A DNA stretch of 64,000 bases from Escherichia coli (GCF_003334335.1 NZ_QOWQ01000013.1); one strand, 5' to 3'; positions 5,832 to 29,809 are shown, numbered from the stretch's first letter. A program made the numbers and translations. The notes: generated by a model not told the origin, from the sequence alone.

Positions 5832-7128
<1,297 letters not shown>

Positions 7129-12428: not shown

Positions 12429-12810
12429 ATGTGCAAATTTGTTGCCATAACGCGGCGCGTGCCGTTGGGTTTGCCCGTAATTCGGTGAGCGCCGGTGATG
12501 CCACCTGAGCGCCTTCCAGTGATAGCGGTTCGTCAGTACCCAACCGCCAGCTGTTGCAGCGACTGCCTTGCGGCAGCATCGCGATTTTTTCTGGCGTCAG
12601 TTGCAGCACTTGATCGGGGCTGACGGTTAATGCGCGCAGAACATCGCTCACTAAAGGATCGGTCAGGGCGGGAAGATCGTTTGCCACCATCACCAGACGG
12701 ACGTGTGCCGGGATCGCAATGGCAATCTCCCCCTGCAACGCGCCAGGGCGACGCAGCGACCACTGGGTAATGCCCAGTTGCTGTAACTGCCAGTCTCGTC
12801 GGGATGTCAT
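12397..12810 (-). CDS. holD: DNA polymerase III psi subunit
   Basis: 137 aa MTSRRDWQLQQLGITQWSLRRP; 32-nt overlap with rimI. Confidence 0.9.
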   Translation of the reverse strand: MTSRRDWQLQQLGITQWSLRRPGALQGEIAIAIPAHVRLVMVANDLPALTDPLVSDVLRALTVSPDQVLQLTPEKIAMLPQGSRCNSWRLGTDEPLSLEGAQVASPALTELRANPTARAALWQQICTYEHDFFPRND

Positions 12811-12912
12811 AGCGAATCGCTCCTGTTGTCAGGGGCGCAAATATAGCAAATTCGTCGATACCGCGCCAACATATGGCTATAATCGCCGCCAGTATCAATT
12901 GAGGAGCATTCC

Positions 12913-13944
12913 ATGTCTGCATTTACCCCGGCAAGTGAAGTCTTGCTGCGTCACAGTGATGATTTCGAACAAAGCCGTATTCTGTTTGCCGGAGACTTAC
13001 AGGATGACCTGCCCGCGCGTTTAGATACCGCGGCCAGCCGTGCTCATACCCAGCAATTTCACCACTGGCAGGTGTTAAGCCGCCAGATGGGGGATAACGC
13101 CCGTTTTAGTCTGGTCGCCACGGCGGATGACGTCGCAGATTGCGATACGCTGATTTACTACTGGCCGAAGAACAAACCGGAAGCCCAGTTCCAGTTGATG
13201 AATTTACTTTCTCTGCTGCCGGTGGGCACTGATATTTTTGTCGTTGGCGAGAACCGCAGCGGCGTGCGCAGCGCCGAGCAGATGCTGGCTGATTATGCGC
13301 CGTTGAATAAAGTCGACAGCGCCCGTCGCTGTGGCCTCTATTTTGGTCGTCTGGAAAAACAGCCGGTATTTGATGCCGATAAATTCTGGGGCGAATACAG
13401 CGTCGATGGCCTGACGGTCAAAACGCTGCCTGGCGTGTTTAGCCGCGACGGTCTGGATGTCGGTAGCCAGTTGCTACTCTCGACGTTAACCCCGCACACG
13501 AAAGGTAAAGTGCTGGATGTCGGCTGTGGCGCGGGTGTGCTTTCAGTTGCCTTTGCGCGCCATTCACCGAAAATTCGTCTCACCTTGTGCGATGTCTCTG
13601 CCCCGGCGGTAGAAGCCAGCCGTGCGACGCTTGCGGCCAACGGTGTTGAAGGTGAAGTCTTTGCCAGCAACGTCTTTTCCGAGGTGAAAGGTCGTTTTGA
13701 TATGATCATCTCCAACCCGCCGTTCCACGATGGGATGCAAACCAGCCTGGATGCGGCGCAAACGCTGATTCGCGGCGCGGTGCGTCATCTTAATAGCGGC
13801 GGCGAGCTGCGAATTGTAGCGAACGCCTTCCTGCCTTATCCGGACGTGCTGGATGAGACATTTGGCTTCCACGAAGTGATCGCGCAAACAGGGCGCTTCA
13901 AGGTGTATCGCGCCATTATGACCCGCCAGGCGAAGAAAGGTTAA
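12913..13944 (+). CDS. rsmC: 16S rRNA (guanine1207-N2)-methyltransferase
   Basis: 343 aa; SAM-binding [11 protein letters not shown] and NPPFH catalytic motif. Confidence 0.9.
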
Positions 13945-14140
<196 letters not shown>

Positions 14141-14175
14141 TTTCCAGCAATTACACCTCCGGCGATAATTAACTA

Positions 14176-14203
14176 TTGACGAAAAGCTGAAAACCACTAG
14201 AAT
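14176..14203 (+). promoter_or_regulatory. Sigma-70 promoter for tRNA-Leu (TTGACG -35, 16-bp spacer, TAGAAT -10, GC-rich discriminator)
   Basis: ttgacg at 14176-14181 and tagaat at 14198-14203, followed by gcgcctcc discriminator typical of stringently controlled stable-RNA promoters, about 40 bp upstream of the tRNA. Confidence 0.65.
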
Positions 14204-14244
14204 GCGCCTCCGTGGTAGCAATTCTTTTTAAGAATTGATGGTAT

Positions 14245-14331
14245 GCGAAGGTGGCGGAATTGGTAGACGCGCTAGCTTCAGGTGTTAGTGTCCTTACGGA
14301 CGTGGGGGTTCAAGTCCCCCCCCTCGCACCA
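14245..14331 (+). tRNA. leuQ: tRNA-Leu (anticodon CAG)
   Basis: GCGAAGGTGGCGGAATTGGTAGACGCGCTAGCTTCAGGTGTTAGTGTCCTTACGGACGTGGGGGTTCAAGTCCCCCCCCTCGCACCA; type II tRNA with long variable arm, CAG anticodon in CTTCAGGT loop, encoded CCA end. Single copy here; which of leuQ/P/V it corresponds to is not determinable. Confidence 0.9.
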
Positions 14332-14369
14332 ATTATCTTTACTTCCTTTCTTGTTTCTTCCCTGTTTTG

Positions 14370-14606
14370 TCATCCCTGATTCAAATTCATTAGCATCAGC
14401 ATGATGCCAGCACTAAGCGTCAGGCACGATGGTAGCAAAACGTAATGCCGTAACTGTTTGTGATACAGCATCACCGGCGTCAATACTAATCCCATAAGAA
14501 TGACAATCCGCCATTGATCCGGCGATAAATCCGCATACATCAGCCCTGCAATCAGCAATCCTGGCAGCAACACTCCCCAGCCACTGCCCAGCGTACGTTG
14601 CAACAT
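14370..14606 (-). CDS. yjjZ: Small membrane protein YjjZ
   Basis: 78-aa product MLQRTLGSGWGVLLPGLLIAGLMYADL... from the internal Met of track ORF 14370..14717. Confidence 0.7.
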   Translation of the reverse strand: MLQRTLGSGWGVLLPGLLIAGLMYADLSPDQWRIVILMGLVLTPVMLYHKQLRHYVLLPSCLTLSAGIMLMLMNLNQG

Positions 14607-14621
14607 GGTTTCATCTCTTTC

Positions 14622-14665
14622 ATTGATAATGATAACCAATATCATATGATAATTTTTATCATTTG
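14622..14665. promoter_or_regulatory. Fur box region upstream of yjjZ
   Basis: gataatgataaccaatatcatatgataatttttatcatt; overlapping matches to Fur consensus GATAATGATAATCATTATC. Confidence 0.6.
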
Positions 14666-14710
14666 CAAGCCAGAGAAATCCCTTGCTATCGGATAAACCT
14701 ATCGCTAGGA

Positions 14711-14730
14711 TTAGCAATCATTATCATTTA
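14711..14730. promoter_or_regulatory. Fur box immediately upstream of fhuF
   Basis: ttagcaatcattatcattta, 17 bp before the fhuF ATG. Confidence 0.6.
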
Positions 14731-14746
14731 GATTACTATCCCGATT

Positions 14747-15535
14747 ATGGCCTATCGTTCCGCACCGCTCTATGAAGATGTTATCTGGCGAACGCATCTC
14801 CAGCCACAGGATGCTGGGCTTGCACAAGCCGTACGTGCGACGATCGCCAAACATCGTGAACATTTGCTCGAGTTTATCCGCCTGGATGAACCCGCTCCGC
14901 TTAACGCCATGACGCTGGCGCAATGGTCATCACCGAATGCGCTAAGTTCTCTACTCGCGGTCTATTCCGATCATATCTATCGCAACCAACCAACGATGAT
15001 CCGCGAGAACAAACCGCTGATCTCACTATGGGCACAATGGTATATCGGCCTGATGGTGCCACCATTAATGCTGGCGCTACTGACGCAGGAAAAGGCATTA
15101 GATGTGTCGCCGGAACATTTCCACGTTGAGTTTCACGAAACCGGCCGTGCCGCCTGTTTCTGGGTCGATGTGTGTGAAGATAAAAACGCAACACCACATT
15201 CGCCGCAGCAGCGAATGGAAACGTTAATCAGCCAGGCGCTGGTTCCGGTTGTGCAGGCACTAGAAGCGACCGGAGAGATCAACGGCAAACTTATCTGGAG
15301 TAATACCGGTTATTTGATCAACTGGTATCTCACTGAGATGAAGCAACTGCTCGGCGAGGCGACGGTTGAATCGCTGCGCCATGCCCTCTTTTTTGAGAAA
15401 ACGCTCACGAACGGTGAAGATAATCCACTCTGGCGTACCGTGGTACTGCGCGACGGCCTGCTGGTGCGCCGCACTTGCTGCCAGCGTTATCGCTTACCGG
15501 ATGTGCAGCAATGTGGCGATTGTACGCTGAAATGA
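14747..15535 (+). CDS. fhuF: Ferric-siderophore reductase FhuF (C-terminal 2Fe-2S cluster)
   Basis: 262 aa ending CCQRYRLPDVQQCGDCTLK (C-C-x10-C-x2-C). Confidence 0.9.
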   Translation: MAYRSAPLYEDVIWRTHLQPQDAGLAQAVRATIAKHREHLLEFIRLDEPAPLNAMTLAQWSSPNALSSLLAVYSDHIYRNQPTMIRENKPLISLWAQWYIGLMVPPLMLALLTQEKALDVSPEHFHVEFHETGRAACFWVDVCEDKNATPHSPQQRMETLISQALVPVVQALEATGEINGKLIWSNTGYLINWYLTEMKQLLGEATVESLRHALFFEKTLTNGEDNPLWRTVVLRDGLLVRRTCCQRYRLPDVQQCGDCTLK

Positions 15536-15572
15536 AAGCACTGCCGGGGAAGTAAACCCGGCATAATGCGGA

Positions 15573-16250
15573 TTAATAGGGATGCAACACATTACTTGCT
15601 TCGCAATGCCGCATACATAACAGAATATCTGCGGCCTCCAACAACCCTGCATCAGAACTGACGCCCAGTTTCGACATCACATTAAATTTATGTGCACGGA
15701 TCGTTTTGATATTGCGTTTAAGCTGCTCGGCAATTTGTGTCATTGAGTAGCCACGCGACATAAAGCGCAATATTTCTCTCTCCGTCGGGCTTAACGTCCG
15801 GCTTTGGTTAATGTACCACTGATTGTTCAGTCGGTCGGTCGCCTGACGTACACCATTTAATGACAAAAAGAGTTCCTGATGAAAAATCTCCAGCGTTGAC
15901 GCTTTACTTAATACACCGTCCAGCGGTGATGGCGACAATGAACCAATCAGCCGAGCTTCAATATCATCATCCGCAATAACTAAACGCCGGGTACGCGGAA
16001 ACTTAATCGCCAGTTCAGTCAGGCAAGATAATCCCTCTCTGCGCTCACTTCTCATGGCAGAAAAAGAAAAAATAACCGCCGCAAATGAGATCCGCGACAT
16101 GGCATCCTGAAATGACTCCTGACTGGTATAGGTATGGAGCTTATAAGGGTTACCCGCAAACTTTCTGAATAAACTCTCAATACCGATACTGCTCATGACG
16201 CATTTTTCTATGAGTGCGACATTTCTCTTCTTAATTCGGCTGTGTTCCAT
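15573..16250 (-). CDS. bglJ: LuxR-family transcriptional activator BglJ
   Basis: 225 aa with C-terminal LuxR HTH ([24 protein letters not shown]). Confidence 0.85.
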
Positions 16251-16933
16251 TCTGCGGCATCTCCATAAACAGAAGGCAAGTTAAGTTCTCTTGCACCCTG
16301 CGCGCTATTTATCCATGCATACATTTCAGCGTTGCTGTGAATTGCCAGTCGACGCATCGCACTGTTTTTTTGGGCGCTGATAGTTTTATTACTTTTCTTA
16401 AGCAACGAAGCTATCTGGTTGATGCCCCATCCTTTACCTAATAGCCGCAGTACCTTGCGCTCTGAAAGAGTGAGAATGACGGAGCGATAGCTAAAATCAT
16501 GAGTTTCAGTCATTGCCGGAGAGGTCAGCATGGCGCTGATACGCTCTGCGTGCGTATTGCCGGAACGTACGGTCTTGACCAGATTCTCAATGGGTTCAAC
16601 ATCAGACAATAACGTCGCCGTAGGGCACATGAGCAATTCTACTGCCTGGGAATACCAGGAGCGTGACACCATGAAAACCCAGTGAATTTCCCGATATTGT
16701 GAAATTAAAGAATAATAATGCTCACAAACAGAACGTGGATCTTCACTTTCACCGGCTAAATCAGCAATGACTAATCCGGAACGACGTAATTGTAATAAGG
16801 TAAGGTCCTCCGCAGAGGCGCTGGATATTATTTCATATTCAGGGAAGTGAGTCCTCATGACCTCTTTTAACCCTGCTTGCATAACAGGTATTTTACTGAT
16901 AACAATTCCATTTTTGCAGCATCCTGGCAACAT
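16208..16933 (-). CDS. yjjQ: LuxR-family transcriptional regulator YjjQ
   Basis: 241 aa, C-terminal LuxR HTH ([22 protein letters not shown]); overlaps bglJ by 43 nt. Confidence 0.85.
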
Positions 16934-17551
16934 ATTTCCTCCACATCCACTGTCTAAAAATCATGATGGTTTATTCAGGATATTCATTCCTTAAATGTTT
17001 CCAGCAAATTAATAGATTAAGCGAATAAATTATCCTTAGCATTCACTTTCATATCAGCATACTCCTGCTGCACAACAACTCCACTGCATGTGTCAGAAGG
17101 TTAGCATCAAATGATAACCTGGTGAAATAGCCTGGAGACATTTAAAATATCTACATTAAGTTGTTAGGAATACTTAATGAAAAACAGAAATCACATTCAT
17201 TTAATTTATAATTAAATGATATCCCTTCCCGCAGAATGAAAAATCACACAACCAATATTTATTCAATGAAATCTGATGGTTTTAACTTGTTAACATTAAA
17301 AAACGTGCCCGGTTATCTATAATCCTGATTCGTAAAGGCCAAACAATAAATTCATTATAGTGATAATATTCATGTGATAGTTTGTTTGCGGCGAGAGATA
17401 ATTCGCTTTTTATCACCGAGCTTGTCCCGATAACCAGGATTAATCAGCGCAATTTTGATCTTAACCTACCGCAAAACAACCGTGCTTCATGATACAAATG
17501 GATTCTCATTATCTGAACAATACGCAGCACGTCTATGACAAAGGGCGAGTT

Positions 17552-18786
<1,235 letters not shown>

Positions 18787-25689: not shown

Positions 25690-27051
25690 GTGGAAAAAGA
25701 AAATATCACCCTCGATCCGCGTTCTTCATTTACTCCATCTTCGTCGGCAGATATTCCCGTGCCACCAGATGGATTAGTTCAACGCAGTACCCGAATTAAA
25801 CGCATTCAAACCACCGCCATGTTGTTATTATTTTTTGCGGCGGTAATCAATTATCTCGACCGCAGTTCGCTGTCGGTAGCAAATTTAACGATTCGTGAAG
25901 AATTGGGATTAAGTGCCACCGAAATCGGCGCTTTGCTCTCCGTGTTTTCACTCGCTTACGGGATTGCGCAACTTCCTTGCGGCCCACTATTGGATCGTAA
26001 AGGCCCGCGCCTGATGCTGGGACTCGGGATGTTCTTCTGGTCACTGTTCCAGGCAATGTCTGGCATGGTGCACAGCTTTACGCAGTTCGTGTTGGTGCGT
26101 ATCGGTATGGGGATTGGTGAAGCGCCGATGAACCCATGCGGTGTAAAAGTCATTAACGACTGGTTCAACATCAAAGAGCGCGGACGCCCGATGGGCTTCT
26201 TCAACGCAGCTTCTACCATTGGCGTTGCCGTAAGCCCACCGATTCTGGCGGCGATGATGCTGGTGATGGGCTGGCGTGGGATGTTTATTACCATTGGTGT
26301 GCTGGGGATTTTTCTCGCCATTGGCTGGTATATGCTCTATCGCAACCGCGAGCACGTAGAACTGACTGCCGTTGAACAAGCTTACCTCAATGCTGGTAGC
26401 GTGAATGCCCGCCGAGATCCGCTCAGTTTTGCCGAATGGCGCAGCCTGTTCCGTAACCGCACAATGTGGGGAATGATGCTCGGATTCAGTGGCATCAACT
26501 ACACTGCGTGGCTGTATCTGGCCTGGCTTCCTGGTTACCTGCAAACAGCCTATAACCTGGATTTAAAAAGCACAGGGTTGATGGCGGCTATCCCTTTCCT
26601 GTTTGGGGCTGCCGGGATGCTGGTCAACGGTTACGTTACTGACTGGCTGGTCAAAGGGGGAATGGCTCCGATTAAAAGCCGTAAGATCTGCATTATTGCC
26701 GGGATGTTCTGTTCTGCCGCCTTTACGCTGGTCGTACCGCAAGCGACAACATCCATGACGGCGGTTCTGCTGATTGGCATGGCACTGTTCTGTATTCACT
26801 TTGCCGGAACATCCTGCTGGGGCTTGATCCACGTCGCAGTTGCTTCTCGCATGACTGCGTCGGTGGGCAGTATCCAGAACTTTGCCAGCTTCATCTGCGC
26901 CTCTTTCGCGCCGATCATTACTGGTTTTATTGTTGATACCACCCATTCATTCCGTCTGGCACTAATCATCTGCGGTTGCGTCACTGCGGCGGGTGCACTG
27001 GCGTACATCTTCCTGGTTCGTCAGCCGATCAACGACCCACGGAAAGATTAA
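25690..27051 (+). CDS. lgoT: MFS L-galactonate:H+ symporter
   Basis: 453 aa, 12-TM MFS with anion:cation symporter signature. Confidence 0.85.
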   Translation: MEKENITLDPRSSFTPSSSADIPVPPDGLVQRSTRIKRIQTTAMLLLFFAAVINYLDRSSLSVANLTIREELGLSATEIGALLSVFSLAYGIAQLPCGPLLDRKGPRLMLGLGMFFWSLFQAMSGMVHSFTQFVLVRIGMGIGEAPMNPCGVKVINDWFNIKERGRPMGFFNAASTIGVAVSPPILAAMMLVMGWRGMFITIGVLGIFLAIGWYMLYRNREHVELTAVEQAYLNAGSVNARRDPLSFAEWRSLFRNRTMWGMMLGFSGINYTAWLYLAWLPGYLQTAYNLDLKSTGLMAAIPFLFGAAGMLVNGYVTDWLVKGGMAPIKSRKICIIAGMFCSAAFTLVVPQATTSMTAVLLIGMALFCIHFAGTSCWGLIHVAVASRMTASVGSIQNFASFICASFAPIITGFIVDTTHSFRLALIICGCVTAAGALAYIFLVRQPINDPRKD

Positions 27052-27060
27052 TCTCCCTAT

Positions 27061-27094
27061 GCCCGATAACATTTTGCTTATCGGGCATTTTTAT
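27061..27094. terminator. Bidirectional Rho-independent terminator between lgoT and tsr
   Basis: gcccgataa-cattttgc-ttatcgggc stem-loop followed by attttta; A/T tracts on both sides. Confidence 0.6.
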
Positions 27095-27099
27095 GGCGA

Positions 27100-28764
27100 T
27101 TAAAACGTTTCCCAGTTCTCCCCGCTATCTGCCACGGCCATTTTACGCGGCGCAGCTGGCGTCACGGTTTTTACCACAGCCGATGTTTCACGCTGCTGTT
27201 GCTGCTGTTGCTGAATCCGGAACACTGCCACAGCTTCGGTCAGGCGACTGGCCTGCTCTTCCAGCGCGGCGGCGGCAGCGGCAGATTCTTCCACCAGCGC
27301 AGCGTTCTGTTGGGTTACTCTGTCCATCTCAGCGACCGCTAAGCCAACCTGATCGATACCACGGCTCTGCTCATCAGAAGCCGAAGCAATTTCGCCCATA
27401 ATGTCCGTCACGCGGGTCACGGCACTGACAATCTCCGCCATTGTTTCCCCTGCGCTTTCGACCAGCGTAGAGCCAACATCTACTTTCCCCACCGAGTCTT
27501 CAATCAGGCTTTTAATTTCACGAGCCGCCTGAGCGCTGCGCTGGGCCAGATTACGCACTTCACCCGCGACCACCGCAAAACCGCGCCCTTGCTCACCCGC
27601 GCGCGCTGCTTCAACCGCCGCGTTCAAAGCGAGAATATTGGTCTGGAAGGCAATGCCGTCAATTACGCTGATAATATCGGCGATTTTCTGCGAACTGGTG
27701 GAGATATCGCGCATGGTCTGCACCACGTTATCCACCACTTTGCCGCCGCGTTGCGCCGTTTCAGAAGCACTTAACGCCAGGTGGCTGGCCTGGCGCGCAT
27801 TTTCGGCGTTCTGCTTCACCGTTGCGGTCAGTTGCTCCATGCTGGCTGCCGTCTCTTCCAGCGAAGCGGCCTGTTGCTCGGTGCGCGAAGAGAGATCGTT
27901 ATTGCCGGTAGCGATTTCGCTGGCACCGCTATAGATGGCATTGGCCCCGTTGCGCACATCACCGACGGTACGCATCAGCTCTCCCTGCATATGGCGCAAA
28001 CTCTCAGCCAGTTGCCCCATCTCATTAGAGCCATCCACCTCAATCGGTTTCACCAGATCGCCGCCTGCAATATGACGAATGCTGTCAATCAGGCGATTCA
28101 TTGGCGCTACCAACGAGGCTTTAATACCGAACCAGACGGCGAAGATGACCGCCAGTACGACGATCATCACGCCCACCAGAATCCACATCGCCTGGCTGTA
28201 GGAGGCATTATTATCGCTGACGGCGATATCATAGAGCCGATCGTTTTGCTCCATGTAAGCCACATACTGCTTCTCGAAACCGTCCTGATATCCCTGGGTC
28301 GGCTGATCAAAGAACTCGTTGATTTTGCCTGCACCTAACAGTTGGATCAGCTCCGCCAGCGCATTGTGATAAATATCGTAATTACGTTTGATCTCTGCCG
28401 CTGCGGCGGTGCTCTGACGCGGGTCACGCGGCAACGCTTCGTAATCCGCCCAGTTTTTTTCCGCCTGTTTCAGCGAAATACTGGCACTCTGCATCAGCTC
28501 AGCAACGGTTGAACCGCTACCAATATTATTCTGATCCATCATGTAGCGGATACCCGCGCGGTTGAGGGTGTTACGCGTCTGCAACAACGCGACCCAGCTG
28601 CCATTCAGCGTGGATTGCTGCTGGCGAATGGTTTGTAAAACAGTGAAATTTTCTTTGTCATTCTTTAAGGCATTAAAGAACAGACCGCCTGATGTCAGTT
28701 GTAAAAGGCCAAAAACGGCCAAAACCAGCAGTAAGCTGGTCACGATCTTGATACGTTTTAACAT
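27100..28764 (-). CDS. tsr: Methyl-accepting chemotaxis protein I (serine chemoreceptor)
   Basis: 554 aa from [22 protein letters not shown]; HAMP and MCP signalling domain; C-terminal NWETF pentapeptide; run of 7 Gln in the C-terminal linker. Confidence 0.95.
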
Positions 28765-28903: not shown

Positions 28904-29809
28904 ATGGTACAAAGTATCAATCTTCTTCGAACCAGTGATACTCCTATGGCTTATAGCATCGATATCATCTCCTGCATTACCGAACGGTTTATGGCGTTAA
29001 CAGCCACTGAAAAGCGTATCGCACAATTTATTCTTGATGACGTCTCTGCCGCAGTAGAGTTGCCAATTGCTGAGCTGGCACGGTTAACGCAAACCAGTCA
29101 GGCGTCGGTGACGCGTTTTGCCCGTGCACTGGGGTGCAAAGATGTCCGCGAGTTGAAAGTCAAACTGGCGCAGTCACTGGCTGTCGGGCAGCGGTTTATT
29201 CTCGATGTACCGGATCTTGACGGTGTTCAGGGGATCTACGAAGCGATTATTAGCGTGCTGGAGACGCATCGTCGTTCGCTGGATATGAATGCCATCAGCC
29301 AGGCTGTAAGCTGGTTAAGTCAGGCGCGGCAAATTCTTGCGTTAGGAACTGGCGGCGGTTCCACTATCTGTTCACAGGAGATTCAGTACCGTTTATTCCG
29401 TCTGGGGCTACCGGTGGTCAGTCAGAATGATGCCCTGATGATGAGAATGATGTGCTCGGCAGTCATGCCGCAGGATGTGGTGATTGTGCTTTCGCTGGGC
29501 GGTTATACACCGGAAATCATCGAAAGTGCGGCAATCGCCCGTCAGTATGGCGCGCGTGTTATTGCCATTACGCCAGCACAAACACCGCTGGCGGAACAGG
29601 TGGATCTGGTATTGCCGTTACTGGTTCAGGAAAGTGATTACATCTTTAAGCCCACCCCTTCCCGCTACGCGATGTTAGCCATGGTCGATGTACTGGCAAC
29701 AGAACTGGCAATGGCAAATAAAGCGCAGGCGAAAGATCGCCTGCGGCGGATAAAACTCGTGTTAGACAGCCACCGTGGGGGCGCTAACCGCCAGCCACTT
29801 GGCGATTAG
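28904..29809 (+). CDS. RpiR/MurR-family transcriptional regulator (HTH_6 + SIS domain)
   Basis: 301-aa ORF; N-terminal HTH (TEKRIAQFILDD...LARLTQTSQASVTRFARALG) and C-terminal SIS sugar-phosphate-binding-like domain; alternative start at Met15 (28946). Not part of the K-12 tsr-btsT interval as I recall it. Confidence 0.75.
   Translation: MVQSINLLRTSDTPMAYSIDIISCITERFMALTATEKRIAQFILDDVSAAVELPIAELARLTQTSQASVTRFARALGCKDVRELKVKLAQSLAVGQRFILDVPDLDGVQGIYEAIISVLETHRRSLDMNAISQAVSWLSQARQILALGTGGGSTICSQEIQYRLFRLGLPVVSQNDALMMRMMCSAVMPQDVVIVLSLGGYTPEIIESAAIARQYGARVIAITPAQTPLAEQVDLVLPLLVQESDYIFKPTPSRYAMLAMVDVLATELAMANKAQAKDRLRRIKLVLDSHRGGANRQPLGD

Follow-up and report, generated by a model that had tools for sequence, protein, structure and literature searches.

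A 9-bp in-frame repeat at the base of the Tsr receptor tether varies by whole units among Escherichia coli genomes

The NWETF pentapeptide at the C terminus of Tsr binds CheR and CheB, and the linker of roughly 30-35 residues that precedes it is described as unstructured (PMC7390727). In a 64,000-nucleotide stretch of Escherichia coli DNA (GCF_003334335.1, NZ_QOWQ01000013.1; "the window" below means this whole stretch), a preliminary description picked out seven consecutive glutamines in this linker and read them as an expansion relative to K-12 Tsr that might alter tethering. The locus raises three questions: what the repeating unit is, whether the window or K-12 carries the unusual form, and whether a linker of this length would be expected to behave differently.

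Results

The glutamine run lies in tsr

The features discussed below are as follows.

27100..28764, minus strand: tsr CDS, serine chemoreceptor, 554 aa plus stop, ATG at 28764-28762 (from the ORF and translation)
27193..27213, minus strand: 9-bp in-frame tandem repeat, (CAGCAACAG)x2 + CAG, Q518-Q524, two-unit (7Q) allele (from the sequence and Tandem Repeats Finder, TRF)
27118..27216, minus strand: flexible C-terminal tether, I517-E549, 33 aa (30 aa in K-12) (from the CDS coordinates, PMC10561060 and PMC4692393)
27103..27117, minus strand: NWETF pentapeptide, residues 550-554 (from the translation; role from PMC7390727 and PMC4692393)

By near-identity to known genes, domain architecture, the presence of NWETF on a non-conserved tether and chromosomal position, the gene is tsr. 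Over its last 301 nt it matches the tsr that PGAP annotates in E. coli N61 at 100%, and the protein differs from that of K-12 W3110 only at residues 92, 178 and 548 and by a QQQ insertion. Pfam detected TarH at residues 1-176 (E 9e-55), HAMP at 217-263 (E 9e-12) and MCPsignal at 327-484 (E 3e-62). Its convergent neighbor is lgoT, as in K-12, N61, ST131 and O157:H7, and the wider neighborhood is that of N61: lgoD, lgoR and lgoT, then tsr, then a MurR/RpiR-regulator island, followed by btsT, yjiX, yjiA, mrr and hsdRMS. From its ATG the protein begins MLKRIKIV...; the mechanical ORF list runs this frame five codons further upstream, to a GTG, but we took the ATG as the start because it is the one annotated by PGAP for the identical N61 gene and is shared with K-12 Tsr. 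The region is present, and annotated as tsr, in 5,383 of 5,426 complete E. coli genomes, and the window is chromosomal E. coli DNA. A role in serine sensing and CheR/CheB-dependent adaptation is predicted for the window protein.

Upstream of tsr (28904-29809, plus strand, and beyond), the window strain, like N61, carries a five-gene island comprising a MurR/RpiR regulator, a sodium:solute symporter, RidA, an N-acyl-D-amino-acid deacylase and an amino acid deaminase (compare 12748-18455 of locus L096); many other strains have hpaR in its place. Downstream, a TRAP transporter replaces lgoT in some strains (LF82, Es_ST80, 13081). Because both sides vary by strain, the flanks of tsr form a variable region. 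Convergent lgoT and tsr are 48 bp apart, and at 27061-27092 in this intergenic stretch a GC-rich hairpin (gcccgataa / ttatcgggc) with a T-run after it looks like an intrinsic terminator for lgoT, possibly a bidirectional one. A plus-strand ORF at 26976-27401 was rejected as a functional gene, since it runs antisense to tsr, which is annotated and strongly conserved, and nothing was seen in its favor.

The repeating unit is 9 bp and sits at the base of the tether

On the plus strand, 27193-27213 reads ctgctgttgctgctgttgctg; the minus strand is CAG CAA CAG CAG CAA CAG CAG, encoding glutamines at residues 518-524. Sequence and translation thus bear out the seven-glutamine run in the C-terminal linker of Tsr. 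Its placement held in part: the run does lie in the linker, but not just before NWETF as had been stated, since it begins at residue 518, among the first tether residues after I517, and ends 25 residues before the pentapeptide.

In K-12 W3110, tsr is 1,656 nt long and encodes 551 aa, with four glutamines at this point (CAGCAACAGCAG, read as ATT CAG CAA CAG CAG CGT), in agreement with the K-12 tether sequence in a published table (PMC10561060). The lengths of 554 and 551 aa, which the preliminary description had given as three codons apart, were therefore correct, and its own caveat that K-12 might share the seven-glutamine run is disposed of by the codon count. One 9-bp unit, CAGCAACAG, accounts for the whole of this difference. 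Beyond the repeat and the three substitutions, the two proteins are alike, being encoded by the same gene at the same locus adjoining lgoT and sharing the domain order TarH, HAMP, MCPsignal, tether and NWETF; whereas the window form has two units, seven glutamines and a 33-aa tether, K-12 Tsr (WP_000919536.1 in W3110) has one unit, four glutamines and a 30-aa tether.

TRF assigned the run a period of 9 bp, with 2.4 copies and 100% matches, that is, head-to-tail copies of a defined unit, as in a variable-number tandem repeat (VNTR). Elsewhere in the 64-kb window it rated two more short arrays about as highly, so a 2.4-copy 9-bp array is statistically unremarkable on its own. Those chance arrays of similar score are what could be said for dismissing the run as a low-complexity stretch or assembly artifact that is biologically invariant. 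That reading is refuted, and hardly credible, given discrete alleles in 9-bp steps in thousands of independent complete genomes, all of them with the frame kept and called as intact tsr by PGAP. It is because E. coli genomes differ here in exact multiples of 9 bp that we regard this as a true repeat locus.

Four alleles differ by whole units, and the window carries the commonest

The alleles follow the general formula (CAGCAACAG)n + CAG, with n = 2 in the window, and copy number varies by whole units, giving record spans of 292, 301, 310 and 319 bp. The frequencies below, out of 5,383 genomes, were inferred from BLAST identity bands and sampled record spans over complete E. coli genomes, and are affected by the over-representation of laboratory K-12 derivatives and clinical clones among RefSeq complete genomes.

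n = 1: 4Q, 551 aa, tether 30 aa, the K-12 form, about 21.5%
n = 2: 7Q, 554 aa, tether 33 aa, the window form, about 75% (75.4%)
n = 3: 10Q, 557 aa, tether 36 aa, as in HS and LF82, about 2.8%
n = 4: 13Q, 560 aa, tether 39 aa, about 0.2%

The window thus carries the modal allele, while the K-12 form is in the minority, and the length polymorphism of the CheR/CheB tether that had been suspected is real.

With the 7Q query, 4,057 genomes matched at ≥95% identity, where 30 of 30 evenly sampled rows spanned 301 bp, and 1,326 matched at 90-95%, with a 292-bp span in all 9 full-length rows sampled there; the 301-bp span accounted for 30 of the 39 full-length rows in this even sample. Of 60 rows sampled evenly with the K-12 query, 44 spanned 301 bp, 14 spanned 292 bp and one spanned 310 bp; the remaining row was a deletion variant. 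The 310-bp class corresponds to three units (10 Gln), an allele present in at least 60 genomes. A synthetic four-unit (13Q) query, to which identical genomes exist in the collection, divided the genomes into bands of 12 (≥99%, 13Q), 153 (95-99%, 10Q), 4,058 (90-95%, 7Q) and 1,160 (80-90%, 4Q). The two independent partitions agree on the 7Q class (4,058 with the 13Q query vs. 4,057 with the 7Q query), and the 12, 153 and 1,160 genomes account for the 1,326 below 95% identity to the 7Q query with one left over. Direct reading gave 4Q in K-12, AR_452, AH25, F1005 and FDAARGOS_1303; 7Q in the window, N61, ST131, O157:H7 and others; 10Q in Es_ST80, HS, KSC64 and LF82; and 13Q in RM14723 (13 Gln, 560 aa).

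The left-over genome is most likely strain 500111 (locus L002, NZ_CM129039.1; tsr at 137-1768), its identity being lowered by a 33-bp deletion. Its Tsr of 543 aa carries the 7Q allele and has lost V491-L501 through an in-frame deletion between short AAL direct repeats; the loss lies in the C-terminal methylation helix and takes out methylation site E493. Judged from its sequence, this Tsr is probably impaired or altered. The neighboring lgoT is a pseudogene.

Synthetic 8Q and 6Q queries built on the common O157-type haplotype retrieved only 7Q genomes, at 99.0%. Against complete E. coli genomes, a synthetic 1Q query gave nothing at ≥99% and a 16Q query gave no 328-bp span, these two queries being judged on record spans only, since BLAST split their alignments in two and made the identity bands unreliable. 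Because no alleles in 3-bp steps (6Q, 8Q) were found, the mutating unit is 9 bp and not a CAG triplet; the CAG/CAA trinucleotide first proposed as the unit must accordingly be replaced by CAGCAACAG. CAA interruption of a CAG tract suppresses single-codon slippage, and such a block would explain why steps at tsr are always of three codons.

The reading frame is kept in all alleles, and PGAP annotates every one as intact tsr. All sampled K-12 derivatives were 4Q, and three records of strain 8178 were all 10Q. With a unit that is a multiple of three and alleles that are stable within clones, the locus is not a phase-variable contingency locus: the CDS stays intact, and neither frameshift switching nor high within-clone instability was seen. 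No niche or host association was visible in the match lists, where all alleles occurred in human, animal and environmental isolates.

The two-unit allele is probably ancestral

Among the matches listed, the closest outgroup was a GTDB species representative of the Escherichia lineage, labelled E. coli SCPM-O-B-8794. Its Tsr is 554 aa long, with 95% protein identity and 178 differences in 1,623 nt. At the repeat it reads ATA CAG CAA GCG CAA CAG CGT CAG CAT, or IQQAQQRQH(E), which aligns with 7Q without a gap. No genome of E. albertii, E. fergusonii or Salmonella was among the matches listed in the outgroup scan. Tsr orthologues of 82-87% identity from Leclercia, Enterobacter, Citrobacter, Kluyvera and Superficieibacter were 553-557 aa long and carried QQ[DE]QQ[KR]-type sequences at the position of the repeat.

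Rooting the whole-gene tree in 7Q took 8 steps vs. 10 when the length state of the outgroup was counted, and 8 vs. 9 when it was not; in the 3' sub-alignment, counting that state gave 8 vs. 9, and leaving it out gave a tie at 8 vs. 8. We infer 7Q, the most parsimonious root, to be the ancestral state of extant E. coli, with 10Q and 13Q as most likely expansions. The 4Q allele of K-12 is most likely a contraction, because 7Q is both the most parsimonious root and a match to the outgroup length. The window does have three codons more than K-12, as the preliminary description held, but its view of them as an expansion from a K-12 norm does not stand, 7Q being the majority form, the outgroup length and the parsimonious root.

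The outgroup segment (CAGCAAGCG CAACAGCGT CAG) is an imperfect repeat, and on that account the perfect two-unit repeat of E. coli must have arisen earlier, by duplication or homogenization. The path may have led via a 4Q-like intermediate, at 5 events vs. 7 substitutions. Comparison of the outgroup 3' end with E. coli genomes turned up no intermediate alleles; the best matches, at 84.4%, all had the 7Q span.

Units have been gained and lost repeatedly, with recombination contributing

An alignment was made of the window, the outgroup and 21 further tsr genes selected to represent the alleles. Under ordered parsimony on a neighbor-joining gene tree of 22 sequences, at least 8 unit gains or losses were needed. 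The changes are recurrent rather than one historical indel, and recombination has contributed to their distribution.

Could the recurrence of 4Q and 10Q on different backgrounds be wholly the work of recombination spreading single ancient indels, with no repeated slippage? A variant encoding QQQQQQQQHQ at codons 518-527, with three units and a G-to-T change in the last (CAGCAACAT), occurs in 2014C-3338 (L084) and DCE7 (L085) on near-identical flanks, although the whole genes are 29 differences apart. Sharing of these flanks across divergent genes indicates recombination of the tsr 3' end, which adds to the apparent homoplasy, and the exchange of neighbors around tsr (lgoT vs. TRAP transporter, hpaR vs. 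MurR/RpiR island) likewise suggests a recombination-prone region. However, moving one ancient indel would bring its flanking SNPs along, and that is not the pattern found. Immediately around the repeat, 4Q alleles have at least three haplotypes (K-12/AR_452/AH25, F1005 and FDAARGOS_1303), and each of these is nearer to some haplotype with 7Q or 10Q than to its 4Q counterparts. The flanks of HS and KSC64 (10Q) are identical to those of the 7Q strain NT1N25, and the 13Q genomes match the 10Q flanks of Es_ST80 at 100%. We therefore regard recombination as the sole cause as improbable.

We consider it very likely, instead, that the run is the two-unit modal allele of an in-frame 9-bp tsr repeat at the base of the disordered tether, slippage-driven, ancestral as 7Q, and serving as a near-neutral spacer. 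In this mechanism the perfect 9-bp units would invite replication slippage or unequal exchange, with gain or loss of whole units, and recombination would reshuffle some of the resulting alleles among tsr backgrounds. The repeat encodes the first non-conserved residues (518 onward) past the end of the cytoplasmic helical bundle, a segment that would act as a passive spacer at the foot of the tether whose far end carries NWETF, where CheR and CheB dock.

Unit changes are predicted to have small effects on tethering

Tether residues 517-549 fall outside all Pfam domains. In published accounts conservation in Tsr ends at residue 517 (PMC4692393), and the flexible chain starts at I517, anchored at R516, with a tether of 30 aa in K-12 (PMC10561060). 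These placements bear on a reading in which the glutamine run extends the C-terminal helix of the four-helix bundle, so that each unit gained or lost would shift the tether anchor by ~0.45 nm. Poly-glutamine beside a coiled coil tends to be helical, which counts for such an extension. So does the Q-rich character of the segment after I517 across Enterobacteriaceae orthologues, which is more conserved than the remaining tail. Yet in these accounts conservation stops at residue 517 and the flexible chain starts there, and EPR on Tar, as relayed in PMC10561060, showed a disordered C-terminal segment; we hold a helical extension to be distinctly unlikely.

In the orthologues, roughly the first six residues after the conserved AVFRI are Q-rich across the Enterobacteriaceae (QQDQQK, QQEQQK, QHDQQR, QQAQQR), and the tail beyond this Q-rich base is poorly conserved (C-terminal 40 residues at loci L008-L019, L034, L065 and L066). 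Conservation of the Q-rich character hints at some constraint on the base of the tether. The Pantoea stewartii orthologue has NRETF in place of NWETF.

For the effect of length, quantitative data come from Tar. In Tar-only cells with tethers of 22, 29, 34 and 46 aa, dose-response and adaptation data were all fitted by a tethered-particle model, in which the peak position x0 of tethered CheR was linear with length, at 0.128 ± 0.048 nm per residue; contour length is 0.36 nm per tether residue, and adjacent methylation sites are roughly 1 nm apart (PMC10561060). One repeat unit is 3 of about 30 tether residues. Carried over from Tar to Tsr, each unit is predicted to add about 1.1 nm of contour and to shift x0 by about 0.4 nm, an extrapolated shift smaller than the roughly 1 nm spacing of adjacent methylation sites. 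The natural tethers of 30-39 aa also fall inside the 22-46 aa range of the Tar constructs. By analogy, then, length changes are probably subtle and near-neutral in their effect on the kinetics of serine adaptation, and every natural allele is expected to work. The functional relevance of linker length that the preliminary description suggested is plausible in principle, with a one-unit effect predicted to be small.

A stronger version would take the window as an expansion over a normal K-12 Tsr, its longer linker meaningfully altering CheR/CheB tethering as an adaptive tuning knob for serine adaptation. The window is indeed three codons longer than K-12; Tar tether length measurably and linearly affects the distribution of CheR (PMC10561060); repeated independent unit changes could reflect selection; and the perfect repeat implies some duplication in the E. 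coli lineage. But an allele found in about 75% of genomes, at the outgroup length, is no departure from the norm. One unit is predicted to move the reach of CheR by only about 0.4 nm, the natural lengths lie where Tar constructs still gave dose-response and adaptation data, no niche or host association was visible in the match lists, and among the papers searched none was found that reports a phenotype. We judge this account rather unlikely. It is likewise quite doubtful that the 30/33/36/39-residue series as a whole is a selected tuning knob, in which recurrent 9-bp gain and loss adjusts the reach of CheR and CheB along the methylation helices. If such tuning were true, the speed and precision of serine adaptation would be set differently among E. 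coli lineages, and K-12, the basis of all quantitative Tsr models, would have an atypically short tether.

Discussion

The tsr repeat resembles coding VNTR loci in bacteria in its perfect tandem unit, its whole-unit differences among strains and its recurrence on different backgrounds. Unlike a typical coding VNTR, it has a very low copy number (1-4) and is stable within clones, and its unit, as a multiple of three, gives no on/off phase variation. It is like eukaryotic poly-glutamine tracts in being a glutamine homopolymer made of interrupted CAG/CAA codons; unlike them, it is far shorter, has no context of aggregation or disease, and changes by a 9-bp unit rather than by triplet expansion.

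The closest functional parallel is the C-terminal linker of Tar, the same kind of disordered NWETF tether, whose length determines how the tethered enzyme is distributed in space (PMC10561060). The sequences are unrelated, the Tar tether being Pro-rich and that of Tsr a glutamine run followed by mixed sequence. The Tar variants of 22, 29, 34 and 46 aa were engineered, whereas the Tsr series of 30, 33, 36 and 39 aa is natural. Li and Hazelbauer in 2006 reportedly also dealt with Tar tether-length variants.

Textbooks and models of Tsr are based on the K-12 protein, and with it on the minority 30-residue tether. That tether has been described as shorter than the 34 aa of Tar, in a way that fits the distances to the methylation sites (PMC10561060). 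As a 33-aa Tsr tether, nearly as long as that of Tar, is present in about 75% of genomes, the shorter-linker argument holds for K-12 and not for the species. The natural 4Q/7Q/10Q/13Q series supplies ready-made tether lengths on which the tethered-particle model could be tried for Tsr. Beyond that, the locus is an ordinary short in-frame repeat polymorphism of a well-known gene, and the practical point is small.

Among the papers searched we found none on the tsr repeat polymorphism or its phenotype, and two apparent leads on a tsr VNTR were rejected (one concerned a TS reagent, the other TSR PCR targets). The variant proteins themselves can nevertheless all be found, with annotation, in public genomes.

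Other repeats in the window

Two further arrays in the window lie outside tsr. A gene at 57361-59499 (plus strand) encodes a 712-aa pentapeptide-repeat protein, whose relatives are annotated by PGAP as "pentapeptide repeat-containing protein" or as the type III secretion effector EspX6 (O157:H7). It has a match in only 637 of 5,426 E. coli genomes, with record spans that vary by strain. Near the C terminus of this protein, a 24-bp tandem array of 9.0 copies at 59171-59387 encodes octapeptide repeats of the SxDKQAKN type; it is likely a real VNTR, and a more striking one than the tsr repeat. At 5842-6358, a 101-bp unit is repeated 5.1 times with 94% matches and contains REP-like sequence (GCCGGATGCGGCG...CTTATCCGGCCTAC), features that suggest a probable BIME/REP cluster.
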